DNA of 64,000 nucleotides from Gammaproteobacteria bacterium (GCA_963665145.1 OY762064.1:1410403-1474402), one strand, 5' to 3'. Positions 1-19,887 are shown, counted from the first letter of the stretch. Numbers and translations are program-made. Notes: generated from the sequence alone by a model not told the origin.

Positions 1-683
1 GCGTCGATGGCTGCCATCAGGCCGTCTAGCGGGACCGAACCGTCACCCTTGGAGACAAACCATCCCACGGTGCCCTTGCCGAAGCTCCGGGCCTCGTCGA
101 AATAGTCGTAGTGAAACAGCAGGACCCCTGAGTTCATGCCGGCGTTGGTGTCTTTGAAGATACCGTCGATATCGAATTCCCAGACGTAGCTGCCGTTGCC
201 CCGGGTCCATATGCTGGACGTGAGCGGAACCCGGTCGCCGACCTTCCAGCCGTACTGGTTCGCCAGCGGTTCGCCGACGATCGCCCCACCCCGGTTGGCC
301 AGCCAGGCCTGCTTCTGTTCCTCCGGCAACTCGATCTCGGGATTCAGTGACAGGTATGGCTCAGCCACCACCGGGTACTGGGCAAACTCCGAGTTGTCCT
401 GGTAACTGGCGCCGAACCAGGTGCCGTGGGACACCGCCTCGATGCCCTCGATGCGCTCGATGCGCGACTGGTAAGCCACCGGCAACATCATGATCAGCGA
501 CACCTTGTGCGAAGACAACAGCCGCTCCTGGGCTTCGGGGCCTACGTCGGACAGGGACAGGGCGATGCGCAATCCTTCGAGCAGGGTGAAGAGAAAGAAC
601 ACCACGAGTATCGCCAGCATCGTGAAAACGGTGCGGATCGGTTTGCGCCACAAATTGCGCCAAACCAGGATGAAACGGTTCAT
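1..683 (-). CDS. ABC transporter permease, FtsX/MacB-type (5' part only; gene continues past the window start)
   Basis: Own translation of the minus strand from ATG at 683. The frame is open to the window edge, so it is absent from the ORF track: MNRFILVWRNLWRKPIRTVFTMLAILVVFFLFTLLEG... It has an N-terminal TM helix then a large extracytoplasmic loop, as in FtsX-family permeases. GGAGGA lies 9 nt upstream, and the gene starts 19 nt after the ATPase stop. Confidence 0.75.
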   Translation of the reverse strand, partial: MNRFILVWRNLWRKPIRTVFTMLAILVVFFLFTLLEGLRIALSLSDVGPEAQERLLSSHKVSLIMMLPVAYQSRIERIEGIEAVSHGTWFGASYQDNSEFAQYPVVAEPYLSLNPEIELPEEQKQAWLANRGGAIVGEPLANQYGWKVGDRVPLTSSIWTRGNGSYVWEFDIDGIFKDTNAGMNSGVLLFHYDYFDEARSFGKGTVGWFVSKGDGSVPLDGLMAAID

Positions 684-702
684 GGGTATGCTTCCTCCGG
701 AA

Positions 703-1398
703 TTAGTGGACTTCTTCCGGCGCCGCGCCGAGTTCGCCCTTGTCCAGGTGCAGCACGCGATGGGCGAAGGAGGCCGCGCGCGGATCGTGCGTGACCATAA
801 TGATGGTCTTACCGTAATCGCGGTTCAGCCGTTGAAGAAGACCCATGATTTCGTCGGCGGTGGCGCGGTCCAGGTCGCCGGTGGGCTCGTCGCACAGCAG
901 GACCGGCGGGTCGGACACGATGGCGCGGGCGATCGCTACCCGCTGCTCCTGGCCGCCGGACAGCTCGCGCGGGTAGTGCGATGCGCGGTTGGCCAGGCCC
1001 ACCAGTTGCAGTGCCGTATTGACGTGCTTCTTGCGCTGGGAGCCGGAAAGAGAGGTCAGCAGCAGGGGCAAGGCGACGTTGCGGGCGGCGGTAAGCACGG
1101 GCAGCAGGTTGTAGAACTGAAAGATGAACCCGATGTTGCGCGAGCGCCATTGCGTGAGCGCGCCGTGCGACAGCTTGCTGATGGCGATTTCGTTCACCCG
1201 CACCTCGCCCTTGGTCGGCTTGTCGAGACCGCCCAACAGGTTGAGCAGGGTGGTCTTGCCGGAGCCGGACGGGCCCATCAGGCCCACGAAGTCGCCCTTG
1301 CGGATACTCAGGCTGATCTTGTCCAGCACGCGAACGAGCTCACGTCCTTTGCGGTAATTCTTGCTGACGCCGGTCAGCTGAATGAATTCTGCGGCCAT
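703..1398 (-). CDS. ABC transporter ATP-binding protein (MacB/LolD-like ATPase)
   Basis: ORF 703..1476 trimmed to ATG 1398 ([15 protein letters not shown]). Walker [10 protein letters not shown], signature LSGGQEQR, Walker [12 protein letters not shown]. Confidence 0.9.
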
Positions 1399-1423
1399 GA
1401 CTTGCGCTTTTTGATTCGAACGC

Positions 1424-2659
1424 TTAAGGATATTGAATTTCCGCGCCGTCGGATAGCCCCGCGGGCGGATCGACAACGACTTTCTCGCCGCGCGACAGCC
1501 CCGAAAGAACCACGACCCGCGCTCCGTCCCGCTCGCCTGTCACCACCTCGCGGCGCAAGGCCCGGCCCTCCTCTGCCACGAACACCCAGTGATTGTCCAC
1601 CGGGCCCATCAGGGCCGAGGTGGCGATGCTCAGCCGGTCGGGTTCCGACGTGGCGGCCGGAGCGGGACCGCCCGCTTCGATGAACGACACTTTCGCTCCC
1701 ATGTCCGGCAGGATGCGCGTGTCGCGCTCAAGAATGCCGACCCGCACCCGCACCGTGGCCTTTTCGCGGTTGGCCGCCGGAACGATGGCGATCACTTCCG
1801 CCGGGATGCGCCACGCCGGATAAGCGTCCAGGCGCGCCGATACCGCTCCACCCTCCTGCACGCGCTGCAGGTAAGCCTCGTTCACGTCGACCTCGATTTC
1901 GAGCGAGTTCATGTCCACCAGGGTGCAGATACCGGTGCGCGTGAAGCCGCCGCCCGCAGACACCGGCGAGACCATTTCGCCCGGTTGCGCGTTCTTGTCG
2001 ATGACCCGGCCGGCAAACGGCGCGCGAATCACCGTCTCGCTGTGCGCCTGGCGCTGTACTTCCACGGCGCGCTCGGCCACCGTCACCGCCGCCTCGTGGG
2101 ATTTGAGGCGGGCGCTCAGGCGGTCGCGCACGGCCCTGGCGGCGTCCAGTTCGGCTTCGCTGGCCAGGCCCTGGGCATTCAGTTCCGACAGCCTCGAGAA
2201 GGAGAGTTCGGCTTCATGGAGCTCGGCGCCCGTTTCGCCCAGCGCGCTGTGTGCCGAAGCCAGCTGCGCCTCGGCAAGGCGCAACTGCGCCAGCTCCGCC
2301 GCGTCGTCCAGCTCCGCCACCACCTGCCCTTCTTCCACGCTCATGCCCTCTTCCACCAGCACCCTGCGGATTCGGCCGGTGCGTTTGGATGAGACCGTGG
2401 CGCTGCGCCTCGCAGTCACGTAGCCGCTGGCATCCAGAACGCTCGCGGCGCCGCCTGCGGACGACATCCGCACGCTCTCGACCCGCACTTCGGTGGTCGA
2501 GGCAGGCCAGAAAAGAGACGCCAGAAACGCAAGCACGCCGACCACGCACACGGTGCCGATCGTCGGCCAGAGGAAGCGCCTCAGCCGGCTTGCTTCGGGC
2601 TGCTCATCCCTTGGGATGCGCAGCCCCTCCAGGCTTGGGCTTGCGGAAGGCTCGTTCAC
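1424..2659 (-). CDS. Efflux periplasmic adaptor (HlyD/MacA-family membrane fusion protein)
   Basis: 411-aa ORF with an N-terminal TM segment (FLWPTIGTVCVVGVLAFLASLFW), a long coiled-coil-like Ala/Glu/Leu-rich segment, and a beta-rich C-terminus. The GTG start overlaps the upstream stop (GTGA at 2656-2659). Confidence 0.85.
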   Translation of the reverse strand: MNEPSASPSLEGLRIPRDEQPEASRLRRFLWPTIGTVCVVGVLAFLASLFWPASTTEVRVESVRMSSAGGAASVLDASGYVTARRSATVSSKRTGRIRRVLVEEGMSVEEGQVVAELDDAAELAQLRLAEAQLASAHSALGETGAELHEAELSFSRLSELNAQGLASEAELDAARAVRDRLSARLKSHEAAVTVAERAVEVQRQAHSETVIRAPFAGRVIDKNAQPGEMVSPVSAGGGFTRTGICTLVDMNSLEIEVDVNEAYLQRVQEGGAVSARLDAYPAWRIPAEVIAIVPAANREKATVRVRVGILERDTRILPDMGAKVSFIEAGGPAPAATSEPDRLSIATSALMGPVDNHWVFVAEEGRALRREVVTGERDGARVVVLSGLSRGEKVVVDPPAGLSDGAEIQYP

Positions 2660-4164
2660 TGAGCGGCGTGTTGGGACGGCGCTTCGCCCGCGGGGCTGCC
2701 GGTATGCTGCGACAGCACCGAATCAATGGCCTGGAAAAAAGCCTCCACGATGGGCCCGCGATAGCGGCCCACCGGCAGTCCGTTGTAGATGACCCGCGTC
2801 CCGTCCTGTACGTATTCCCGCACCAGCGGCTGGTTCCAGTCCGGATAGTCGATGGGCTGGTACAGGCTGTACTCGTCGAACCCATGGAAATTGACCATGG
2901 CGTGGCCGAAGGCCGTGTCGGTATTTTCGACGAAGAAGGAGATCGGCACGTTGACGACGTAGTCGAAACCATCGCGGATCCCGTCCCAGTACGCCTCATT
3001 GGTGGACAAATACCTGTCGTTGGGGTCGTTGATGGGATCGGCGAAATTCTCCTGGCTCGCCACGAGCTCGTGGCGGGCGAAGCCGTAGCTCTCCAGCAGT
3101 TCGCCGAGATCCTTCTCGGTGGCGTCCAGATACGCCGGAGCGAGCTGCAGCCAGGCCTCGTGCGGGACCCGGTCCCAGGGCATGCCGTGCGTGGATATCA
3201 CCACCTTTACGGAATCCTCGGGCGAGAACGTATCCAGCCGGTCCTTCAGCATCCGCACGTAGGCGCTGCGCGTAACCGGCTGGTCGCCGAGCTGTGGAGC
3301 GATGATCACCTTGATGTGCTTGTCGTTGCGCTCCTCCCACTCGTGGATGTAGTGCATGGCGTGCTTGATGCTGCCGTTGAATTCCTCATGGTGCGAGTAA
3401 ATCGGCCGCGGCATCGCCAACAGTACCGTATCGATCCCGGTGTCCAGGAGTTCATACATGGCCTTTCGGGCCATGCCGAAGTTATCGGCGGTGACCCAGG
3501 CCCAGGGAATGTCGCCGTACTCCTGATGGACCCGTTGCATGGCCTCTTCGGCGATGATGCGATTGCCGGACTCGTGGGGGATCCGGCCGTCCATGAAACC
3601 CTTGCCGGGGGCGTAATAGAACACCCGGCACTTGGTGATCAGCCGGGCCGCCGACGCGGGCATGCCCGCCATGCGGCCGGGAAGCAGGAAGTATCCCTGG
3701 GCCAGGTAGGTGCCGGGCGAGGGCGGCGACCACACCACTTCGCCGGTGAGGTACTTGTCGGCGTACGGCACGCCGTCGTAGTCGGTGTCGCGTCCCAGGT
3801 GGTCGATCAGCCGGGTGGGGGTGAATTCCTCGAACTCGTAATAGCGCTCCGCATCCATGAGCACCACGCCGCGGTCGACGTTGGCGATATTGCGGACCGG
3901 CCAGGGGATGTACTGCAGGCTCTTCTGCGCCAGGACGTAGTAGTCCTCAAAGCGCAGTTCTTCCGGCTGGATCAGGTGCGAGATGAACACGCCCACGCGG
4001 CCTTCAGGCCGTGTGTCCTGGGTCTTGTAGTAGGCGAAGTAGTTCGGCTCCACCAGTTGCGGCGGAGTGCGGTTCATGTACTTGAACACGACGAATCCCG
4101 CGACCCCGAGCGTGAACACGGCAATCAGGCACACCACGGCCACCTTGAGGAGCCTCTTCATCAT
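2656..4164 (-). CDS. Membrane-anchored ferrochelatase-fold (class II chelatase-like) protein, paralog A; function unknown
   Basis: 502-aa ORF with an N-terminal TM helix (LLKVAVVCLIAVFTLGVAGFVVF). By-eye alignment to ferrochelatase landmarks: GVFISHLIQP ~ GxLLxNLGTP, DTVLLAMPRPIYSHH ~ xIVVLPLYPQFS, KVVISTHGMPW ~ LLxSAHSLP/SYHGIP, YVVNVPISFFVENTDT ~ PxGFVxDHxETL. ATGA overlap with the upstream paralog. Confidence 0.7.
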   Translation of the reverse strand: MMKRLLKVAVVCLIAVFTLGVAGFVVFKYMNRTPPQLVEPNYFAYYKTQDTRPEGRVGVFISHLIQPEELRFEDYYVLAQKSLQYIPWPVRNIANVDRGVVLMDAERYYEFEEFTPTRLIDHLGRDTDYDGVPYADKYLTGEVVWSPPSPGTYLAQGYFLLPGRMAGMPASAARLITKCRVFYYAPGKGFMDGRIPHESGNRIIAEEAMQRVHQEYGDIPWAWVTADNFGMARKAMYELLDTGIDTVLLAMPRPIYSHHEEFNGSIKHAMHYIHEWEERNDKHIKVIIAPQLGDQPVTRSAYVRMLKDRLDTFSPEDSVKVVISTHGMPWDRVPHEAWLQLAPAYLDATEKDLGELLESYGFARHELVASQENFADPINDPNDRYLSTNEAYWDGIRDGFDYVVNVPISFFVENTDTAFGHAMVNFHGFDEYSLYQPIDYPDWNQPLVREYVQDGTRVIYNGLPVGRYRGPIVEAFFQAIDSVLSQHTGSPAGEAPSQHAAQ

Positions 4165-5690
4165 CCGGGCTGCCCTGCCTCATGCGTGACGCCGGCGATC
4201 CGTTCGGTCCGTCCGCCGGACGGATCGCCGGAATGCTGCGAAAGAACCGCATCCATCGCCTGGAAGAAGGCCTCGACGATGGGCTGGCGGTAACGGCCCA
4301 CCGGCGTGCCGTTGTAGATCACCCGCGTGCCGTCCTGGACGAACTCCCGGACCATGGGCTGGTCCCAGTCGGAGTAGTCGATCGGCTCGTAAATCGTGAA
4401 GTCGTCAAAGAACTCGAAATTGAACATGGCGTGGGAAAAGGCCGTGTCGGTGTTCTCCACGTAGAACTCGATCGGAACGTTGACGATATGGCTGAAGCCG
4501 TCATGGATGCCGTCCCAGAAGGCTTCATTGGTGGACAGGTACCTGCCCTGGGGATTATTGATCGGATCGGCGAAATGGTCCTGGCTGAGCACCACTTCGT
4601 GGCGCGCGAAACCGTAGCCTTCCACGATCTTGCGGGCGTCCTCCACCATGGCGTCGCGGTACGGCGGCGCCAGCTCGATCCAGGCCTCGTGCGGCACGAA
4701 ATCCCAGGGCATTCCGTGAGTGGATATCACTACCTTTACGGAATCCTCCGGCGAGAAGGTGTCCAGCCGGTCCTTCAGCATGTCCAGGTAGGCCCGGCGC
4801 AGGACCGGAAACTCGCCCAGCTGCGGCGTCATGATGACCTTCACGTGCCTGCCGTTCATTTCCTCCCACTCGTGGATGTAGTGCATGGCGTGCTTGAAGG
4901 CGCCGTTGAACTCCTCGTGGTGCGAGTAGATCGGCCGCGGGGCTGCCAGTATCACCGTGTCGATACCCGTATCCAGCAGTTCATACATGGCCTGACGCGC
5001 CATGCCGAAATTGTCGGCGGTGACCCAGGCCCAGGGAATGTCGCCGTACCTCTCATGCACCTTCTGCATGGCTTCCTCGGCAATCACCCGGTTGCCGGAC
5101 TCATGCGGCACCCGGCCGTCGGTGAATCCCTTGCCGGGTGCGTAGTAGTAGACCTGGCACTTGGTCACCAGCTTGGCGGAGAGGAGCGGCATTCCGGACT
5201 TGCGCCCGGGAAGCAGGAAATAGCCGTGATCGAGGTGGCGCGTCGGTGAAGGCGGCCTCCAGACCACCTCTCCGGTCAGGTACTTGTCCGCATAGGGCAC
5301 GCCGTCGTAGTCCGTATCGCGGCCCAGGTGGTCGATCAGCCGGGTGGGGGTGAATTCCTCGAACTCGTAGAAGCGCTCCGAATCCATCAGCAGCACGCCC
5401 TGGTCGCGGTTGGCGAGATTGCGAATCGGCCAGGGGATGTATTGCAGGCTTTTCTGCGCCAGGACGTAGTAGTCCTCAAAGCGCAGTTCTTCCGGCTGGA
5501 TCAGGTGCGAGATGAACACGCCCACGCGGCCTTCAGGCCGTGTGTCCTGGGTCTTGTAGTAGGCGAAGTAGTTCGGCTCCACCAGTTGCGGCGGAGTGCG
5601 GTTCTTGTACTTGAAAATGCCGTATCCGGCGGCGCCGAGCGCGAAAACGGCGGCCACCGCCACTACCACCCCCTTGAGCAGTTTCTTCAT
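4161..5690 (-). CDS. Membrane-anchored ferrochelatase-fold (class II chelatase-like) protein, paralog B; function unknown
   Basis: 509-aa ORF, colinear with paralog A over its whole length and carrying the same motifs (VVISTHGMPW, NVPIEFYVENTDT). N-terminal TM helix (VVVAVAAVFALGAAGYGIF). ATGA overlaps at both ends (5687-5690 and 4161-4164). Confidence 0.7.
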   Translation of the reverse strand: MKKLLKGVVVAVAAVFALGAAGYGIFKYKNRTPPQLVEPNYFAYYKTQDTRPEGRVGVFISHLIQPEELRFEDYYVLAQKSLQYIPWPIRNLANRDQGVLLMDSERFYEFEEFTPTRLIDHLGRDTDYDGVPYADKYLTGEVVWRPPSPTRHLDHGYFLLPGRKSGMPLLSAKLVTKCQVYYYAPGKGFTDGRVPHESGNRVIAEEAMQKVHERYGDIPWAWVTADNFGMARQAMYELLDTGIDTVILAAPRPIYSHHEEFNGAFKHAMHYIHEWEEMNGRHVKVIMTPQLGEFPVLRRAYLDMLKDRLDTFSPEDSVKVVISTHGMPWDFVPHEAWIELAPPYRDAMVEDARKIVEGYGFARHEVVLSQDHFADPINNPQGRYLSTNEAFWDGIHDGFSHIVNVPIEFYVENTDTAFSHAMFNFEFFDDFTIYEPIDYSDWDQPMVREFVQDGTRVIYNGTPVGRYRQPIVEAFFQAMDAVLSQHSGDPSGGRTERIAGVTHEAGQPG

Positions 5691-6694
5691 TGTCTTGGCT
5701 GACCCTCGATTTCCAGAGCGTCGGCAGGCTCGGCGAACGGCACCCTTCCCAACCAGGCGCCGGCGTCCGCGGCCGTCTCAAGCGGCGCTTCCTGGATCGC
5801 CATATGCCCGACGCCGGGGTAAATGATAGTCTCAACCGACGGCGAGTTCGCAAGCAGTCGAGCAAGTTCAGCAGCCAGTTCCACATGCACCTGCGGGTTC
5901 TCCTCGCCCCATTGAATCAGCACCGGCGCCCGCAGCTGTCCGATCAGTTCCTCGATGTCGCCGGAAATGTACTGCCGCAGGCGCGCCAACTGGGCCGGTC
6001 GCTGACCCTCAAGCCGCCACAGGTCATGCCAGCGGTCCACCAGTTCGTCGGACACCTTCGAGGGATCGCCGAAACCGGTCTTGAGCATGAATTCCGGCAG
6101 TGCGCGGGGGGTGATCCAGCGCACCAGCACGGTTGCCGGCGACATGCGCGGCGGCGCCTGCCGGCCGCGCACATTGGGCTCCAGAGAGCCCGGCGAGATC
6201 AGCACCAGGCCGGCCACCCGGTCCGGGTTGCGAGCCGTGTAGTGCATCGCCACGGTGCCGCCCAGGGACGTTCCCACGATCACGCAGCGATCCACACCTA
6301 TGCGGTCGAGCAAGTGCTCCATCAGGTCCACCGTGCGCGGCAGGCCGTAGTCGCCGGTAGCGTCGGCGCCGCTCAGGCCGTGGCTGGTCATGTCGAAGCG
6401 CACCACGCGAAAACGGTCCTTGAGCATCTCGGCCCACGGGTCCCAGCCGATCAGGCTGGCGAAGTTGGCGTGGATCAACACCACCGCCGGTCCCTGTCCC
6501 TCATCGCGATAGTGGATGCGGGCGCCGTCGATCTCGGCGAACTGCGAAGCCGGCGTAGCGTAGCGGGCCTCGAGCTTCTCCGCCGGGATGTCACGCCAGA
6601 TCCAGGCGGCCACGGCGAAGGCAATCAGCACCAGCGAAATCAGTCCCCCTAGTGCCCATGCCAGACCCAGCAGAATGCCCCGTACTATCCTCAC
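5687..6694 (-). CDS. Alpha/beta-fold hydrolase with N-terminal membrane anchor
   Basis: 335-aa ORF with an N-terminal TM helix (ILLGLAWALGGLISLVLIAFAVAAWIW). Nucleophile elbow GTSLGG, HG-type oxyanion region (VVLIHAN), and a C-terminal catalytic His context (GVGHMA). The GTG start overlaps the anti-sigma stop (GTGA). Confidence 0.8.
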   Translation of the reverse strand: MRIVRGILLGLAWALGGLISLVLIAFAVAAWIWRDIPAEKLEARYATPASQFAEIDGARIHYRDEGQGPAVVLIHANFASLIGWDPWAEMLKDRFRVVRFDMTSHGLSGADATGDYGLPRTVDLMEHLLDRIGVDRCVIVGTSLGGTVAMHYTARNPDRVAGLVLISPGSLEPNVRGRQAPPRMSPATVLVRWITPRALPEFMLKTGFGDPSKVSDELVDRWHDLWRLEGQRPAQLARLRQYISGDIEELIGQLRAPVLIQWGEENPQVHVELAAELARLLANSPSVETIIYPGVGHMAIQEAPLETAADAGAWLGRVPFAEPADALEIEGQPRQ

Positions 6695-7452
6695 AATGGA
6701 CGCTCGGGCCGGGAACCGGTGGCCGCGACCAGCAGCAGCGGACCGTCGGAAACCACCACCCCGCCCGCCTGTTCGAGCGTTACGGCGAACGCCACGGGAG
6801 CGTCCACCGGAAGCTTGGCGTCAACCCTGATCACCGCTTCGCCCGATGCGGATGCATTGAATACGCCGCCGTCAACCAGGTTCGCGTAGCGGTCCGGGTC
6901 GACGATCCACAGTTGATACTGCTGGTCATCCGGGTCGTTCAGCGGCAGGCCTGCAAACCGCATCTCGCCGGCCTGCAGCGAATCGCTCCAGATGATTTCT
7001 CCGCGCACCTGTTCATAAGCAGTAATTTCCGAGCGCCAGGGTAGCGCAAGAGCGTCGGGCGCCGATTGAACCATCGCGGGTTCCGGGAGTATCGGCGGAC
7101 GCTCAAGCAGCACCGAGGATACCAGCCACGCCAGCCCCATCGCCGTGGCTGCCGCCCATCCCCAGCGGGCCGACCGGTTCACCCGCCGCGGCGGAGTGTC
7201 CACGGCCCGCGCGCGGCCCATGCCCGACAAGCGTGCACGCAACTCCTCCGGCATGCGGCGGTGGCCGGCGCGGTCCTCGGCCAGGAATGCCGCCTGCGCC
7301 AGCGCGGCCGCCTCATGCATTGCGTCCCGCTCGCGCCTGCGCTGTTGCGACGGCAGTGCGCCCAACAGTGCCTTCAACTCCTGGTGGTCGGCCTCGTCGA
7401 GCGTGAGTTCGGTAGCCTCAGCGGCCAGCAATTCGTGGAGTCTGTCAGCCAT
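6691..7452 (-). CDS. Anti-sigma factor, RskA-like (single TM, extracytoplasmic C-terminal domain)
   Basis: ORF 6691..7494 trimmed to ATG 7452 (MADRLHELL), overlapping the sigma gene stop by 8 nt. Central TM helix (WGWAAATAMGLAWLVSSVLL). The C-terminal segment (YQLWIVD...VAFAVTLEQAGGV) resembles the anti-sigma-K RskA C-terminal domain. Confidence 0.7.
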   Translation of the reverse strand: MADRLHELLAAEATELTLDEADHQELKALLGALPSQQRRRERDAMHEAAALAQAAFLAEDRAGHRRMPEELRARLSGMGRARAVDTPPRRVNRSARWGWAAATAMGLAWLVSSVLLERPPILPEPAMVQSAPDALALPWRSEITAYEQVRGEIIWSDSLQAGEMRFAGLPLNDPDDQQYQLWIVDPDRYANLVDGGVFNASASGEAVIRVDAKLPVDAPVAFAVTLEQAGGVVVSDGPLLLVAATGSRPERPL

Positions 7453-8044
7453 GGCCACCACTTTGCCCTTCGCGCTCTGCATTGAGCGCTTCACGCATGC
7501 GTATCAGGCTGCGCCGGATTCGCGTCTTGACGGTACCGATAGGCATATTCAGGCGTTTAGCGATCTCGCTATGTGAATATCCTTCGTATAAGGACAGCGA
7601 AAGGATTTCCCTTTCATTGTCCGACAACATGCCCAGCAGCGGGCGGACCTGTATCGACGCCAGTTGTGCCTCCAGGCGGGCGTCTCCGTCCAGGGACGGG
7701 TCGACCTCATCGCCCATCAAGGGCACGCTGTCCCCGAACCGTGCTTCGTGGCGGATCTGATCGATTATCCGGCGGCGGGCCACGGTCAGCACGAAGGTCA
7801 ATTCACTACCCCTCTGGCGGCGAAAGCGGCCGGCGCTGGACCAAAGGGACAGGAAGGCCTCCTGGACCGACTCCTGGGCGACCGGCGAGGTCCCGAAATA
7901 GCGCCGCGCCAGCGACCAGATCAGATCGCCGTACTTGTCGACGAGATCTGCCATCGCCTGCGGATCGCCTTCCGCTACGCGTTCCAGGATCGCGGGTCCC
8001 GGCGCGGGACGGGAATCCTGCGGCGGCGCCTTCGAGGTGTTCAC
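7445..8044 (-). CDS. RNA polymerase ECF-type sigma-70 factor
   Basis: 199-aa ORF with sigma region 2 (DLIWSLARRYF...QEAFLSLW) and a region 4 HTH (LSLYEGYSHSEIAKRLNMPIGTVKTRIRRSL). GTG start at 8044; the exact start is uncertain. Confidence 0.88.
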   Translation of the reverse strand: MNTSKAPPQDSRPAPGPAILERVAEGDPQAMADLVDKYGDLIWSLARRYFGTSPVAQESVQEAFLSLWSSAGRFRRQRGSELTFVLTVARRRIIDQIRHEARFGDSVPLMGDEVDPSLDGDARLEAQLASIQVRPLLGMLSDNEREILSLSLYEGYSHSEIAKRLNMPIGTVKTRIRRSLIRMREALNAEREGQSGGHG

Positions 8045-8181
8045 GCGATCATCCAGGGAGTCGTTCGGCCTTGAGAAAGACCGGATTGTATTCTCCCGCC
8101 CGCGTGACGGAGCGGAGAAACTTCGATTTGCTGCGTCGCTCGCATAGACTGGAGCCGGCGGACTTCGAAATTGGGTAAGGA

Positions 8182-9963
<1,782 letters not shown>

Positions 9964-12154: not shown

Positions 12155-13099
12155 ATGAGCGACACAGCAAACACTTCCAACCATTCGGGTCTCGACCGGC
12201 GCGCCATGTTGAAAGGCCTGGGCGCGGGAGCGCTGGGAGCGACGGCGCTCGCGGGCTGCGCCGCCGAACAGCGCCGTGTCCCCCTGGACCTGAACGACCC
12301 CGTATCGCGCCTGCGGGCACGGGTAAAGACCTTCGGTTCGCTGGGCGAGGAAACGGTGCATCGAGTGTCGCGCGGCCATGTGTGGGCCTACTTCAACGAG
12401 GGCAACCTGGACCCGCTTTTCAGCATGATCAACTACAACGTCACCCGCTGGCGGCAGGTGGACGAACACAATTACGAGGCCACCATGAACGAAGTGGCCC
12501 TTTTCACCCGGTTCGACACCGATGAAGTAATAACCCACTGGGACAACCCCTATACCGGCGAGACGGTGGAGATTCAGCAGTACATCGTTGGGCCCATCTA
12601 TATCCAGAATGGCCTTGAAGGCACGGTGACCGACGAGAATGCGACCATGGTTCCAAAAAACATGGAATGGTGGACGGTCGGAGGAAAGCTCTTCATCCCG
12701 ACTCGATCCACATTCGCCTTTCCCAATCCCCTGCAGCCTGAAGTGTGGCCCAAGGCATCGGTGGGGCCGACCTTTCACTGGGACTCCTTCATGTTCTTCG
12801 CCGCCGATATCTCCGACCTGGAGAACCCGGACCTCACCATGGCGCCGGCGATCAGCCATTACCAGGAAACGCTGAACTGGAACCCGTGGATGCTGATGGG
12901 CCAGCGACCCGGCCGCCAGCTCTCGCGCGGCTACGGCTGCAAGCTGCGAAGTCTCGACGAAATGCCCGCCAACCTGCGCGCCCGCCTGGATGAATACTCG
13001 CCGGAGATTTTCGATTTGGAGAACTGGACACAAGTGAAGAACGACATGGTGGAGTTCATGAAGAACCGAACGCCTGCGACCCCGGAAACCGCAGAATGA
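12155..13099 (+). CDS. Tat-signal lipoprotein, DUF1838-like; function unknown
   Basis: ORF 11624..13099 trimmed to ATG 12155, with AGGAGA 6 nt upstream. The upstream part of the ORF overlaps thyA out of frame. Twin-arginine signal plus lipobox: DRRAMLKGLGAGALGATALAGC. The body (LDLNDPVSRLRARVKTFGSL...WDNPYTGETVEI) matches my recollection of DUF1838. ATGA overlap with apaG. Confidence 0.6.
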   Translation: MSDTANTSNHSGLDRRAMLKGLGAGALGATALAGCAAEQRRVPLDLNDPVSRLRARVKTFGSLGEETVHRVSRGHVWAYFNEGNLDPLFSMINYNVTRWRQVDEHNYEATMNEVALFTRFDTDEVITHWDNPYTGETVEIQQYIVGPIYIQNGLEGTVTDENATMVPKNMEWWTVGGKLFIPTRSTFAFPNPLQPEVWPKASVGPTFHWDSFMFFAADISDLENPDLTMAPAISHYQETLNWNPWMLMGQRPGRQLSRGYGCKLRSLDEMPANLRARLDEYSPEIFDLENWTQVKNDMVEFMKNRTPATPETAE

Positions 13100-16177: not shown

Positions 16178-17524
16178 TTACTTCTTGTATTCCACGAACG
16201 CTTCGGCGCGCAGTCTTTGCAGCCAGAGCTGGGTTTCTTCCTGCACCTTGCGGTCACGCAAGGCGATATACGCACGATCACGGCGCACGTCTTCGCTTAC
16301 GTCCTGCATCCGCGTTCCGGAGCGTTGCGCAATATGCCAGCCAAAGGAACTGCGTATCGGCTCGCTGATCTCGTCCCCCTCAAGTTCGGCGACAGCCGCC
16401 GCGAAAGCAGGATCAAGGTCCTGGGGCGAGACCCAGCCAAGCAAGCCGCCCTCGCTGGCCGATCTCGCGTCCACGGAGTATGCGCGCGCCAGGGCCTCAA
16501 AACTCTCGCCGGCGAGTACCCGCTCGCGCAGTTCGGCCACCTCGCTGCGGGTCGAGTCATCGTCGCGTATTTCGTTGGCTTGCAGCAGGATGTGCCGCAA
16601 TTCCCACTGCTCCTGGATAATCGCGTCGCCGCCGCGCACGTCATCCAGGCGCACGATGTGCACGCCGCTCCCCGTCGTAATCAGTTCAGCCAGTCCCCCG
16701 GGCTCCAGCTGGACCACGTGCGCCACGAAAGCCGTGGGCAGGGCGTTGCGTTTGCGCCAACCCAGGCTGCCGCCCTGCAAGGCGTTTTGCGACTCGGAAT
16801 ACGCGATCGCCAGTTCCGCGAAGTTCTCCCCGTCCTCGACGCGCCGGCGCAGCTTTTCGGCCCGTTCCCGGGCAGCTTCGCGTTGCTGGGCGGTTGCGTT
16901 GAGCGGAGTGCCGATGAGGATATGTGAGACCTGGTATTCCTGGTTCGCCTCCTCGCCCCCTTCCGCACCCCGCAGAAAGTCATCCACTTCCCTGGCGTTG
17001 AGGAACACCCTGGTAACCACGTCCCGCTGCCTGAGCGTATCCAGGACGATCTGCGCTCGCAGTTCCTCGCGGTACGCCGCGTAATCCACACCCTGCTCCG
17101 CCAGCACGTCGGGCATGTCGCTCAGTTCCACTTCGTTCTGCCGGGCCACGAAGCTCAGTGCCCGGTTGACCTGCTCGTCGGAGATCTCGATGCCGGCTCG
17201 CTTTGCGCGCTGCAATTGAATTTCGCGCAGAATGAGCCGTTCCAATACCTGGTCCTCCAGCATGGAGCCGGGCGGCAAACGCAGTCCCTGGGCGCGGATA
17301 TTGTCTCGTACGGCGGACAGCTCCTGCGCCAGTTCGCTGGTCAGCACGACGCCGTCGTTGACCACCGCCACGATTCCGTCGAGGAACTCGCCGTCGTCAC
17401 TGAGCTGGGCGTCGGCGGGCGCACCGTTCAGCGCCAGGCACGCGCCCAGGAGCAAGGACAGGATGCAGCGCCGGCCGGAAGGAGAGCGCGGATGAAAATT
17501 GATTTTGAAGTGCGGAAAGCTCAC
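16178..17524 (-). CDS. surA: Periplasmic chaperone / peptidyl-prolyl isomerase SurA
   Basis: ORF 16178..17941 trimmed to GTG 17524, 20 nt after the lptD stop. This gives a signal peptide (SFPHFKINFHPRSPSGRRCILSLLLGACLALNGAPADA). SurA N-domain (GIVAVVNDGVVLTSEL) plus two parvulin-like segments (HILI..., HILL...FGWHI). Confidence 0.9.
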   Translation of the reverse strand: MSFPHFKINFHPRSPSGRRCILSLLLGACLALNGAPADAQLSDDGEFLDGIVAVVNDGVVLTSELAQELSAVRDNIRAQGLRLPPGSMLEDQVLERLILREIQLQRAKRAGIEISDEQVNRALSFVARQNEVELSDMPDVLAEQGVDYAAYREELRAQIVLDTLRQRDVVTRVFLNAREVDDFLRGAEGGEEANQEYQVSHILIGTPLNATAQQREAARERAEKLRRRVEDGENFAELAIAYSESQNALQGGSLGWRKRNALPTAFVAHVVQLEPGGLAELITTGSGVHIVRLDDVRGGDAIIQEQWELRHILLQANEIRDDDSTRSEVAELRERVLAGESFEALARAYSVDARSASEGGLLGWVSPQDLDPAFAAAVAELEGDEISEPIRSSFGWHIAQRSGTRMQDVSEDVRRDRAYIALRDRKVQEETQLWLQRLRAEAFVEYKK

Positions 17525-17544
17525 GCCGGGTCCGGGGGAATCAC

Positions 17545-19719
17545 TTAGCGGCTGGGGTAGCCGAGCATACCACGCTCGATCATTTCCCTGGCGTCTCCGC
17601 CAAGGCTGGTCAGTCCCTTGAGCGTCACCTGCAGATAGACCGAGGCCCCGCCCAGGGTGGCGTCCCGTTCCACATGCCGGCGCCACAGAAGCGCCACGTT
17701 TATGCAGCAGGACTCGTACTCGAAACCCAGGTAACGCTCCAGCTCCACGTCTTCCGCAAAGGAGTAGTTGTAGCGGCCCACGGCCGTCCAGCGGTTGTTG
17801 ATGGCCCAGCGAAACGCCAGATCGAGGTTCTCGGTCCGGGCCCAGCGGCTGCGGTAGGCCACCCGGACGGTCCGGCGCGGGTCCTTGCGATAGACCACCG
17901 CCAGTTCCGAACGGCTGGCGGCATCGATTTCCGCGTCCCAAAGGTAGCGCATGTCCAGCTGCCAGTCCTTGCCCAGGCCGTAGGCGAACTCCGCAATGTA
18001 GTCGGACGCGGAGTCCTCATGTGAACTCAAGCCTTCCAGGCTGACGCTGCGCCCCCTGAAGTTGTAGCGCTGACCCAGGGTGAAACGCAGCAATTCCTTG
18101 CCGTCGGTGCTGCGATGGATGGCCCCCTGGACGCCGGCGCTGAGATGTAAGGTGTCGCCCACGCGGTCGAAGCCCAGGTAGCGGTTGGGCCGGAACAACT
18201 GTACGTAGTTGAAGTCCGGAATGATGGTGTCGAAAACCGGCAGACGTTCCTGGTTGACGGTAGGGATAAAGCTCAGCATCACGCGCGGCTGCAGGGTCAC
18301 ATCCACCGGCCGGGTCACGAACCGCCGCCAGAGGCCGGCGCGCGCATCCACGCTCATCACGGGCAGCACGCGATAGTAGGTGTCGTCCTGCTCCTGAAAC
18401 GGCTCGGAGACGTGGTAGCCGGTAACCAGCAGCGACGCGGAAGGCCGGATGTCGACGGGGCCCGCACGGTAGCGGCCCTGCAAGTGCGGTTCCAGGTGGA
18501 CCCGCGCACCCGAGGTTCGCTGGGGATGCTCAAACCAGCCGGTCTCCACCCAAAGCCGGGCATCCATATTGGGAAACAGGTCCGGCCATCGGCCGTGCAA
18601 TCGAACCTCCGGCAGGCGCACATGCGGTCGAAACAGGCGTTCGACGTCCGGATGCACGACCTGGTGTCCGGTAACGCGGACAACTGCGTCAATAGTGTCG
18701 CCGCCGTAGGTGGCCGCCAGTTCACGGCGCAGGTGGGTCTGGGCCTGCTCCCAGAAACCCCGGCCGATGTCCTCGATGTACAGGTCGTCGGACACCCAGC
18801 GCCCATCCGAGCGGATCCGCCACCTGTCCGAGAGAACCGTATCCGTGTGGATATCCACATCGTAGCGGGAACGGTCACGCAGCTTGTCCTGAGGAAGGTA
18901 TCCGACCTTGATCCGGCCGGTTGAGTTGCGAGTCAGGAATCGGTAGTCCGCGCCGGCGAAAAAGCCCAGGCGCGAGAGATAGCGGGGACTGAAGGTGGCG
19001 TCCATATTCGGCGCGATATTCCAGTACCAGGGCGCCTCCAGCTCCAGCCCCCGCCGGCTGGAACTACCGATCTCCGGCACCAGGAAACCCGACTTGCGCT
19101 GGCCAAGCGCCGAGAACGATATGGACGGCAAATACAGAATCGGCACGTCCAGTATCCTCAGGCTGATTCGCTGAGCCTGGCCGAAACCCGATTCCTGCTC
19201 CATCTGAATGGACCCGGCGCGAAGTTCCCAGTGGTTGCGGCCGGGCAGGCAGCTGGTATAGATGACGTCTTCGAGGCTCACCTGATCCTGCTGTCCGTCC
19301 AGCAGAATGTCCGCGGCGCTGCCCCTGACCAGGCTGTCGCGCACAGCGTATTCCGCCGAGCCGAATCGCAGCAGGTCCCGATTCAAATCGAGCAGGGCAT
19401 CCTTGGCCCGCACCTGCACGGAGTCGCCGGAGTACGCCACGTTGCCCGAAAACTCAAACCGGTTCTCGCGCTGATCGAAGCGGGCGGTCTGCACGTTCAG
19501 GCGGTGGTTGCCCATGCACATAAACACTTCGCCCGGAAAATCAAAGCTCCCGCCGAGGGAGCCGACTACGCTCTCGTAGGTCGTAACGCCCAAAGTCATC
19601 TCCGAGCGCTCCATTGCAGCCTTACAAGCCAGTTCCGCACCGGGCTTCTCCTCCCAGAGATGGGATTGCGTGGGCGCCATGCAAGCTGCGGCCAGCGGTG
19701 CGAGCAGGGAAATCGGCAA
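17545..19719 (-). CDS. lptD: LPS-assembly outer membrane protein LptD
   Basis: 724-aa ORF with an OstA-like N-domain and a large beta-barrel (SGFLVPEIGSSSRRGLELEAPWYWNIAPNMDATFSPRY...). Conserved position upstream of surA. Confidence 0.93.
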   Translation of the reverse strand: MPISLLAPLAAACMAPTQSHLWEEKPGAELACKAAMERSEMTLGVTTYESVVGSLGGSFDFPGEVFMCMGNHRLNVQTARFDQRENRFEFSGNVAYSGDSVQVRAKDALLDLNRDLLRFGSAEYAVRDSLVRGSAADILLDGQQDQVSLEDVIYTSCLPGRNHWELRAGSIQMEQESGFGQAQRISLRILDVPILYLPSISFSALGQRKSGFLVPEIGSSSRRGLELEAPWYWNIAPNMDATFSPRYLSRLGFFAGADYRFLTRNSTGRIKVGYLPQDKLRDRSRYDVDIHTDTVLSDRWRIRSDGRWVSDDLYIEDIGRGFWEQAQTHLRRELAATYGGDTIDAVVRVTGHQVVHPDVERLFRPHVRLPEVRLHGRWPDLFPNMDARLWVETGWFEHPQRTSGARVHLEPHLQGRYRAGPVDIRPSASLLVTGYHVSEPFQEQDDTYYRVLPVMSVDARAGLWRRFVTRPVDVTLQPRVMLSFIPTVNQERLPVFDTIIPDFNYVQLFRPNRYLGFDRVGDTLHLSAGVQGAIHRSTDGKELLRFTLGQRYNFRGRSVSLEGLSSHEDSASDYIAEFAYGLGKDWQLDMRYLWDAEIDAASRSELAVVYRKDPRRTVRVAYRSRWARTENLDLAFRWAINNRWTAVGRYNYSFAEDVELERYLGFEYESCCINVALLWRRHVERDATLGGASVYLQVTLKGLTSLGGDAREMIERGMLGYPSR

Positions 19720-19887
19720 ACGCGTATCCCTCAGCCGACGAACCGGCCGACCGCTGCCACGGGGCCGTTATGCAAGGTCAAATTCATCAGGTCATTCATC
19801 CGGACAATATGCACTTTACCTGCTTCCCGGCGCAGTAGACCGCGCATAGCGTGATTTCAGCGTGCGACAATCGCGCCGGAAAAACAG

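Follow-up and report, generated by a model that had tools for sequence, protein, structure and literature searches.

Removal of the metal from haem with the ring kept has been described for EfeUOB/YfeX with MacAB-TolC in Escherichia coli and for HmuS/BtuS with FeoAB in Bacteroidota (PMC4263509, PMC6460266, PMC12583661). In these systems the iron is passed to an FTR1-type or Feo transporter and the porphyrin leaves through a MacB-type pump. In E. coli, MacAB-TolC expels the protoporphyrin left by deferrochelation, and mutants are sensitive to light (PMC4263509); in Bacteroides, haem loses its iron in the periplasm, FeoAB imports this iron and the porphyrin is released (PMC6460266). For IhtB, a role in taking iron out of haem has been put forward (PMC6460266). 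IhtB/FetB of Porphyromonas gingivalis and CbiK(P) of Desulfovibrio vulgaris are chelatase-fold proteins placed outside the cytoplasm. Here we analyse an eight-gene block at positions 1-8044 of a 64,000-nucleotide (nt) stretch of DNA (hereafter the window) from an uncultured, sponge-associated Gammaproteobacteria bacterium (GCA_963665145.1, OY762064.1:1410403-1474402). The block encodes an extracytoplasmic function (ECF) sigma factor and an anti-sigma factor, a membrane-anchored alpha/beta hydrolase, two anchored ferrochelatase-family proteins and parts of an ATP-binding cassette (ABC) pump. The deferrochelation systems use DyP peroxidases or class I (CobN-like) chelatases, whereas the window family has a ferrochelatase fold and no linked iron importer in the window; CbiK(P) and IhtB/FetB are CbiK-type proteins of about 260 amino acids (aa), soluble or lipoproteins, that lack the extensions, the hydrolase and pump partners and the ECF control seen here. 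A literature search found no characterisation of the chelatase-like family and no described system with such a gene content; literature on DUF3526 and on 'Foliamicus' yielded nothing useful.

The two chelatase-like proteins, an A-type of 509 aa encoded at 4161-5690 and a B-type of 502 aa at 2656-4164 (both minus strand), each carry an N-terminal transmembrane anchor. They are divergent ferrochelatase-family members with a class II chelatase fold, and the membership that can be claimed for them stops there. This assignment draws on three results: (i), both score above the Pfam gathering score of 27 for Ferrochelatase (A-type, 8.2e-8, 32.0 bits; B-type, 1.1e-6, 28.3 bits). (ii), the first 33 Foldseek matches of an AlphaFold (AF2) model of the A-type (predicted local distance difference test 78, predicted template-modelling score 0.75) are all ferrochelatases (E 2e-10 to 1e-5, target TM-score 0.51-0.68), led by the enzymes of B. 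subtilis, Listeria, human and yeast, with periplasmic CbiK(P) (2xvz, E 1.7e-5) and P. gingivalis FetB (9b86, E 2.8e-5) lower in the ranking. (iii), a broader family alignment (A2; 23 sequences, down to 17% identity) matched E. coli plus human ferrochelatase in hhalign with 97% probability (E 4e-11), placing H325 on the catalytic His (H194 in E. coli, H263 in human) and D415 on the catalytic Glu (E275 in E. coli, E343 in human), a conservative change of Asp for Glu. Only 11 columns of A2 are invariant, those of H325 and D415 among them; H325 is also invariant in the narrower alignment A1, and an invariant Asn, N413, aligns with human H341. The relation is significant only with the broader alignment set against the two-sequence ferrochelatase profile, and by structure: PDB sequence searches with the single protein and with the family profile retrieved no ferrochelatase, and when the narrow A1 was compared with E. 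coli HemH alone, hhalign matched no more than the P-x-Y-S loop, with a probability of 1.4%. The first-pass annotation, made from the sequence of the window, had assigned a ferrochelatase fold to both proteins, and on the profile, structure and catalytic-site evidence that assignment stands.

Shared with ferrochelatase (HemH/CpfC; PF00762) are the two-lobed fold and the signature segments, namely the beta1 loop Leu...Pro, the P-x-Y-S loop, S-x-H-G-x-P with the catalytic His, and F-x-x-[DE]-x-x-[ED]-T with the catalytic acid. The window proteins differ in their N-terminal anchor, in the Asp for Glu replacement, in their probable periplasmic location and in their length (about 500 aa vs 310-360 aa, that is some 190 extra residues). 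That they are ordinary, or alternative, ferrochelatases making cellular haem is what Pfam membership and the automatic Joint Genome Institute (JGI) label 'protoheme ferro-lyase' of some homologues would suggest, the others being labelled hypothetical; but we hold this very improbable. The A copy reaches 22.1 bits against the 124.6 required by the NCBIfam hemH equivalog (TIGR00109) and the B copy gives no match, the proteins have the extra residues and a membrane anchor, the genes lie under ECF or TetR control beside hydrolase and exporter genes with no haem-biosynthesis neighbours, and the distribution is patchy: a scan of 185,579 species genomes with the family alignment gave 97 matching stretches, from which 80 loci were kept. 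A family profile search among 1.84 billion proteins gave 152 representatives at 50% identity (47 at E<=1e-30); most are fragments, and those of full length measure 450-500 aa, unlike HemH. All 80 kept loci come from environmental assemblies (79 labelled as metagenome-assembled genomes), many of them from sponges, which explains why the family has seen no experimental work; members from Alpha- and Gammaproteobacteria are 55-94% identical.

The A-type and B-type are 79% identical, and among syntenic loci only the window and its closest genome, L003 in our numbering of loci, hold two chelatase-like genes. In a tree, the A-type comprises window A, L003 A and Candidatus Foliamicus, and the B-type comprises window B, L003 B and the rest of the clade, the B-type sub-lineage being the one that occurs singly in most related genomes. 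A recent tandem duplication was considered as the origin of the pair and rejected, as the tree places the copies in two old sub-lineages.

The chelatase-like domain is likely to face the periplasm, because several lines converge. The N-terminal hydrophobic helix is preceded by a higher positive charge than follows it (mean +2.95 vs +1.7), a mild bias for an N-terminus inside; distant relatives bear signal peptides, a lipobox, or a signal peptide together with a C-terminal anchor; a fusion of the domain to the iron permease FTR1 inserts an additional transmembrane helix after the permease; and the operon partners are themselves periplasmic (the RskA_C domain, the MacB periplasmic domain, cytochrome c' and the DUF885 lipoprotein).

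These distant relatives also carry the link to iron and offer the best clue to function. A search from a distant match led to an archaeal group (Thermoplasmata and Promethearchaeota) with exported and cytoplasmic forms, homologous over its full length to the proteobacterial family (hhalign of alignment A1 against A4, probability 99.7%, E 2.7e-25, 403 columns). One exported Thermoplasmata member lies in a DtxR-FeoA-FeoA-FeoB-MJ0565-[gene]-...-FeoA operon and another relative from this class lies between a FeoC-like gene and genes for a PKD-CbiX surface protein and a DUF4198 protein (L094:3619-9537 and L095:445-5277). Two fusion proteins (P0296 and P0297; L091:5274-7544) join an FTR1 iron permease (Pfam 3.6e-36), the extra transmembrane helix and a chelatase-like domain, which hhalign relates to the window proteins over its full length with a probability of 99.6%. 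The Feo operons and FTR1 fusions of the archaeal relatives tie the superfamily to the handling of iron and metal outside the cytoplasm. Searches of the window and of the proteobacterial loci for FTR1, FeoB and canonical HemH were negative except for a single FeoB-like fragment in L044, at a distance of 9 kb.

The Feo and FTR1 association could also be accommodated if the chelatase-fold proteins bound or handed over free metal (Fe, Zn, Co, Ni) or a small metallophore, with no tetrapyrrole involved, and the ABC system moved the metal or the emptied ligand. The fold named 'chelatase-like' in SCOP is found in metal-binding periplasmic receptors as well, and some neighbours within the family hint at metals, or are a coincidence: in Steroidobacteraceae a ZrgA-ABC-FtsX-DUF3299 cluster, a putative zinc-regulated transporter, is convergent to the chelatase-like gene (L089:5767-8929), and in Rhodospirillaceae NicO and DUF1007 genes lie 8 kb from it. 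Periplasmic siderophore esterases and MacB-type recycling pumps are also known, PvdT being one such pump (mentioned in PMC4263509). We nevertheless regard metal handling of this kind as distinctly unlikely: the sequence and profile matches are to ferrochelatase itself, with all its signature segments, and not to binding proteins; the adaptor implies export across the outer membrane; neither a TonB receptor nor a FecR-type anti-sigma factor accompanies the genes; and the Zrg and NicO neighbours may reflect coincidental synteny.

The genes around the chelatase-like pair form a compact array. The first-pass annotation had described eight same-strand genes with start/stop overlaps and gaps of 25 and 19 nt, and the table of open reading frames (ORFs) together with the sequence of the 64-kb window bears out this layout, all eight ORFs being found on the minus strand at the coordinates it gave; domain searches concur with the products it had named. 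The sigma gene (7445-8044) ends with TGA at 7447-7445, beyond the ATG of the anti-sigma gene at 7452-7450, an 8-nt overlap (ATGGCTGA). Four 4-nt start/stop overlaps follow, at 6691-6694, 5687-5690, 4161-4164 and 2656-2659, and gaps of 25 nt (adaptor stop at 1424 to ATPase ATG at 1398) and 19 nt (ATPase stop at 703 to permease ATG at 683) lead to the last two genes. No sigma-70-type promoter match was found inside 1-8400, and terminator-like sites in that interval are not enriched (4 vs 4.9 in shuffles). The eight genes likely form a single transcription unit, since they overlap in this manner, lack a sigma-70-like promoter and any excess of internal terminators, and are preceded by one ECF-type motif. 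The arrangement is not a product of chance, because the same order is kept in 19 genome loci (L001-L019, from sponge-associated Gammaproteobacteria and Candidatus Foliamicus) and in 2 metagenome loci. Among the carriers of the operon are complete chromosomes, for example OY762933.1 and OZ253475.1. The operon is cut by the window start. In L001-L019 the genes that come next encode a second permease (FtsX/MacB_PCD), a cytochrome c' (PF01322) and usually a DUF885 lipoprotein, and in L003 the continuation spans 16209-19857 with further gaps of 25, 12 and 115 nt.

The periplasmic membrane-fusion (adaptor) protein (411 aa, 1424-2659, minus strand) matches HlyD_D23 (5.2e-22) and passes TIGR01730 RND_mfp (167.8 bits, cut-off 94.9) while missing the MacA equivalog (75 vs 342). 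The ATPase (703-1398, minus strand, start taken as ATG 1398) matches ABC_tran (5.9e-35) and belongs to the LolD/FtsE/MacB group, in which its best matches lie below the equivalog cut-offs (LolD, 232.7 vs 307.75 bits; MacB, 216.7 vs 966). The FtsX-type permease, starting at ATG 683, is present as its N-terminal 227 aa (1-683, minus strand); this fragment has no Pfam match of its own, and its orthologue in L003 has an FtsX domain (1.9e-11). The second permease, found in relatives beyond the point where the window begins, combines MacB_PCD and FtsX. The pump shares with MacAB-TolC, LolCDE and HrtAB a LolD/MacB-group ATPase, a membrane-fusion adaptor and, judging from the relatives, probably FtsX-type permeases with a periplasmic domain; its two different permeases recall LolCDE and its adaptor recalls MacA. 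It differs from these systems in that all equivalog cut-offs are missed, that the ATPase and the two permeases are separate genes, not fused as in MacB, and that no outer-membrane factor is encoded locally: a single-sequence query found no OEP-like ORF in the window or related loci, and such a factor may be encoded elsewhere. The adaptor, ATPase and permease of the 'tripartite' exporter proposed in the first-pass annotation are thus present, but the label itself is something we infer, since no outer-membrane factor gene lies nearby.

Exporters of one type or another accompany the family well beyond the sponge clade, in which the MacB-type pump lies within the same operon. Exporter genes of differing types (MacB-type, ABC-2, and resistance-nodulation-division, RND) are found within 7 kb of family members, and among 76 genome loci an ABC ATPase cluster is present in 38, an anchored hydrolase in 21 and a double hydrolase in 17. 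In Rhodospirillaceae and some Gammaproteobacteria the gene immediately upstream encodes a DrrA-type ABC ATPase, in some cases accompanied by two ABC-2/DUF3526 permeases and a divergent TetR gene; downstream come one or two double alpha/beta hydrolases of 560 aa that lack export signals. These tandem hydrolases of Rhodospirillaceae, often in two copies, have no specific family match (for example L081:11633-15018). In other Gammaproteobacteria the orthologous anchored hydrolase is directly upstream, an RND or FtsX/ABC pump is divergent, and cytochrome c' plus cytochrome c follow downstream; in Steroidobacteraceae, esterases and a DUF5916 outer-membrane protein lie upstream of the chelatase-like gene. 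Further neighbourhoods contain a luciferase-like monooxygenase with a major facilitator superfamily (MFS) transporter, DUF1838, or cytochrome P460. Exporters and hydrolases are therefore the common neighbourhood theme of the family: of the proposal that chelatase-like, exporter, hydrolase and ECF genes co-occur across genomes, the exporter and alpha/beta hydrolase parts hold in several unrelated gene orders, but the ECF part does not.

Seen from the hydrolase, the association is looser. The hydrolase of the window (335 aa, 5687-6694, minus strand) has an N-terminal hydrophobic helix with positive charges on its N side, an Abhydrolase_1 domain (6.7e-25, Pfam) and a GTSLGG motif. When metagenomes were scanned with the hydrolase family, 80 loci (L097-L176) were obtained, 40 of them informative with at least 2 kb downstream, and the next gene after the hydrolase was cytochrome c' in 13, a DrrA-type ATPase in 8, a chelatase-like gene in 6 and another gene in 13. 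Hydrolase, cytochrome c' and exporter are the commoner core, and these counts (13 vs 6 of 40) make the chelatase-like gene an accessory, optional addition, which, when present, usually sits just before cytochrome c'. The link between hydrolase and chelatase-like gene thus recurs when approached from the chelatase side but is optional when approached from the hydrolase side; an obligate pair was considered and rejected, the hydrolase usually being found without the chelatase-like gene. A divergent MacB-type ATPase lies upstream of the hydrolase in 15 of 26 metagenome loci. The hydrolase thus most often stands between such a divergent ABC system and a cytochrome c' gene, with no chelatase-like gene present, and we see no obvious explanation for this pairing of hydrolase and cytochrome c'.

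The closest solved homologue of the hydrolase is PlaF (6i8w, E 2e-18, residues 20-322 vs 7-311, from the juxtamembrane segment to the C-terminus), and PlaF (PA2949 of P. aeruginosa) is a phospholipase A1 anchored in the inner membrane, with its catalytic domain on the periplasmic side (PMC9132575). Both proteins have a single N-terminal helix anchor and an alpha/beta hydrolase domain and align along their full length, but the similarity is modest (70 bits, near the scores of C-C hydrolases). The Ser of GTSLGG and the His of GVGHMA are kept in orthologues, but where PlaF has its catalytic Asp258, the window hydrolase and every orthologue carry Asn, and the Glu found two positions earlier is likewise invariant (residues 262-266, WGEEN). 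The triad may use Glu or be unusual. A PlaF-like lipase and a LolCDE/MacB-like extractor could form the core of an envelope module that remodels damaged lipid or a hydrophobic toxin in the inner membrane's outer leaflet, or clears it from there, with the chelatase-fold proteins as accessory binding proteins or enzymes for some non-tetrapyrrole ligand. The periplasm-facing phospholipase A1 as nearest homologue, the LolCDE-like set of one ATPase and two different FtsX permeases, the wide occurrence of hydrolase, exporters and cytochrome c' without a chelatase-like gene, and the common response of ECF sigma factors to envelope stress all speak for such a module. We consider it unlikely all the same: the chelatase catalytic His and acid are invariant superfamily-wide, which argues for retained metal chemistry, the Asn in place of the catalytic Asp weakens an already modest resemblance to PlaF, and the Feo and FTR1 links of the relatives would be left unexplained.

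The hydrolase can be given another task. Plant chlorophyll breakdown pairs a serine hydrolase with a demetalating enzyme, pheophytinase being an alpha/beta hydrolase. By analogy, the window esterase could remove the phytol or another ester tail from chlorophyll or pheophytin that has got into the membrane, the chelatase-like enzyme could remove Mg, and the pump could expel the phototoxic pheophorbide-like product. This gives every enzyme a job and explains the esterase better than metalloporphyrin demetalation does; the hosts, sponge symbionts and aquatic bacteria, are exposed to algal pigments, ECF or TetR control suits a response to an exogenous compound, the hydrolases give weak matches to the BchO family, and in L084 a gene of the chlorophyllase family (PF07224) is located 6 kb upstream. 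We nonetheless judge it improbable: the BchO scores are far under the cut-off (49 vs 172), the chlorophyllase neighbour is a single occurrence, the distant relatives indicate iron rather than magnesium, the closest solved hydrolase homologue is a phospholipase, and chlorophyll binding has no direct support.

The regulator of the block is more restricted in its distribution than its targets. The sigma factor (199 aa, 7445-8044, minus strand) is of the ECF type (Pfam Sigma70_r2 1.8e-16, Sigma70_r4_2 1.1e-13, Sigma70_ECF 5e-9), and its best NCBIfam match is the SigK subfamily, at 120.6 bits below the cut-off of 226. The anti-sigma factor (6691-7452, minus strand, start taken as ATG 7452) is a single-pass protein with a periplasmic RskA_C domain (1.1e-9, 39 bits vs a cut-off of 29.4, Pfam). 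An ECF sigma factor followed by a single-pass RskA_C anti-sigma factor, with SigK as best NCBIfam match, is also the layout of the SigK-RskA pairs of groups ECF18 and ECF19, most of whose ECF18 members and many of whose ECF19 members keep a redox-sensing pair of Cys residues (PMC7509140, PMC7826278). The window pair differs from these in its score below the SigK cut-off, in the genes downstream, and in the Cys pair, which is absent because the sigma factor contains no Cys at all. Upstream, an ECF-type promoter-like motif, GAATACAAT-N16-CCGAA (8064-8093, minus strand), precedes the sigma gene. Alignment of upstream regions places the full motif, GAATACAAT-N16-CCGAAC, about 20 nt before the sigma start codon; GAATACAAT itself is kept in 15 of 17 aligned sequences, the full motif occurs once in the 64-kb window against 0 expected, and it is single-copy in each of 11 related loci, every time upstream of sigma. 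From this pattern we infer an autoregulated ECF promoter driving the whole block.

The ECF/anti-sigma pair is present in 17 of the 19 syntenic loci and in none of about 57 other family loci, TetR regulators taking the regulator's place in lineages outside the ECF clade. The suggestion that ECF control is linked to the family in general fails on these counts, the link being confined to one clade. Two Candidatus Foliamicus genomes lack the pair and have restriction-modification-like genes instead (L002:3600-8066, L016:4260-8186); the block from hydrolase to permease is intact in both, and it can therefore exist without the ECF regulator.

Taken together, these results suggest a working model for the operon. 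The promoter-like motif upstream of sigma would probably drive all the operon genes, the membrane anti-sigma factor keeping the sigma factor bound until a signal is sensed by the anti-sigma factor's periplasmic RskA-type domain. At the outer face of the inner membrane the products would come together: the hydrolase and one or two ferrochelatase-family enzymes on like N-terminal anchors, a MacB/LolCDE-type ABC machine made of one ATPase, two different FtsX permeases and the adaptor, and, in the full operon, a periplasmic cytochrome c'. The chelatase-like enzymes may act on a membrane-partitioned metalloporphyrin by inserting its metal or, more probably, by taking it out, our best guess being haem losing its iron; ferrochelatase can work in the reverse direction (Taketani 2007, cited in PMC6460266). 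The ABC pump would expel the hydrophobic, phototoxic porphyrin product, as MacAB-TolC does with protoporphyrin in E. coli, and cytochrome c' could, speculatively, supply a reducing electron. The model does not account for the role of the hydrolase, which may cleave an ester-linked group from the substrate or act on a membrane lipid.

We favour periplasm-facing metalation or demetalation of a membrane-bound metalloporphyrin with efflux of the product, as a tentative reading to which we give somewhat less than an even chance; we are far more confident of the operon structure and of the family assignment. The first-pass annotation had proposed a signal-inducible module that modifies and expels a tetrapyrrole-like or metal-bound compound, and here the gene content, the fold and the exporter link agree with it, but an ECF link beyond one clade does not. 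Several observations weigh against the metalloporphyrin reading. The proteobacterial members have neither an iron importer nor a Fur-type signal, a TonB receptor or a canonical haem gene as neighbours, the iron link comes solely via relatives at 17-30% identity, and ECF or TetR regulators fit detoxification better than iron acquisition. The catalytic Glu has become Asp and human H341 has become Asn, the predicted topology depends on a weak charge bias, export signals being clear only in the distant relatives, and the hydrolases adjoining the family in Rhodospirillaceae have no export signal of any kind. Haem demetalation does not require an esterase, hydrolase, cytochrome c' and exporters are common without the chelatase-like gene, no outer-membrane channel gene lies near the operon, and the contexts with luciferase-like monooxygenase and MFS transporter, DUF5916 or DUF1838 do not indicate haem. 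Within the metalloporphyrin reading, disposal of an unwanted compound fits the proteobacterial loci better than iron foraging, because these loci lack iron importers and carry ECF or TetR regulators.

A wider extrapolation, which we hold to be doubtful, is that the family and its relatives form an unrecognised superfamily of extracytoplasmic ferrochelatase-type enzymes working in reverse, stripping iron or another metal from tetrapyrroles. Archaea would feed the metal to FeoB or to a fused FTR1, Proteobacteria would couple the reaction to porphyrin exporters, and sponge symbionts would have added an ECF switch, a membrane esterase and a cytochrome c' that could provide the electron for reduction of ferric haem.

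The surroundings of the operon are unremarkable. Its flanks are housekeeping genes (DUF255 thioredoxin, glyoxalase, lgt, thyA, DUF1838, rsmA, pdxA, surA and lptD), so that the operon is chromosomal, with no obvious island, and Rfam and tRNA scans of the window gave no matches. The DUF1838 gene lies 4 kb from the operon (window about 12300-13099, plus strand); a DUF1838 gene is also directly divergent from the chelatase-like gene, or a few kb off, in L066-L071 and L086, an association that may exceed synteny. In one lineage of Gammaproteobacteria the gene after the chelatase-like gene, where other lineages have cytochrome c', encodes a cytochrome P460 and is accompanied by an HxlR regulator (L040:11778-12395, L090:3698-4177). 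Prolyl aminopeptidase, HSP20, DUF1150 and MscS-like genes in Rhodospirillaceae were set aside as seemingly unrelated flanking genes.

Exported chelatase-fold proteins such as CbiK(P) and IhtB/FetB, and the logic of dechelation plus transport, were already known; what is new here is the extended family, its combination with a hydrolase, a cytochrome c' and a pump and, in one clade, the ECF control. Should the tetrapyrrole reading prove wrong, the locus is still a compact, conserved ECF regulon with known target genes, a convenient model for RskA-type signalling. The removal of iron from haem with the ring intact is an active question, DyP-type 'deferrochelatases' being disputed and the class I dechelatase HmuS having been shown only recently. 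If the reading is right, an extracytoplasmic class II, ferrochelatase-type enzyme would become a third, testable dechelatase candidate. It would also assign a function to a conserved family of environmental genomes, abundant sponge symbionts among them, and show how such bacteria handle the haem or pigment load in their hosts.

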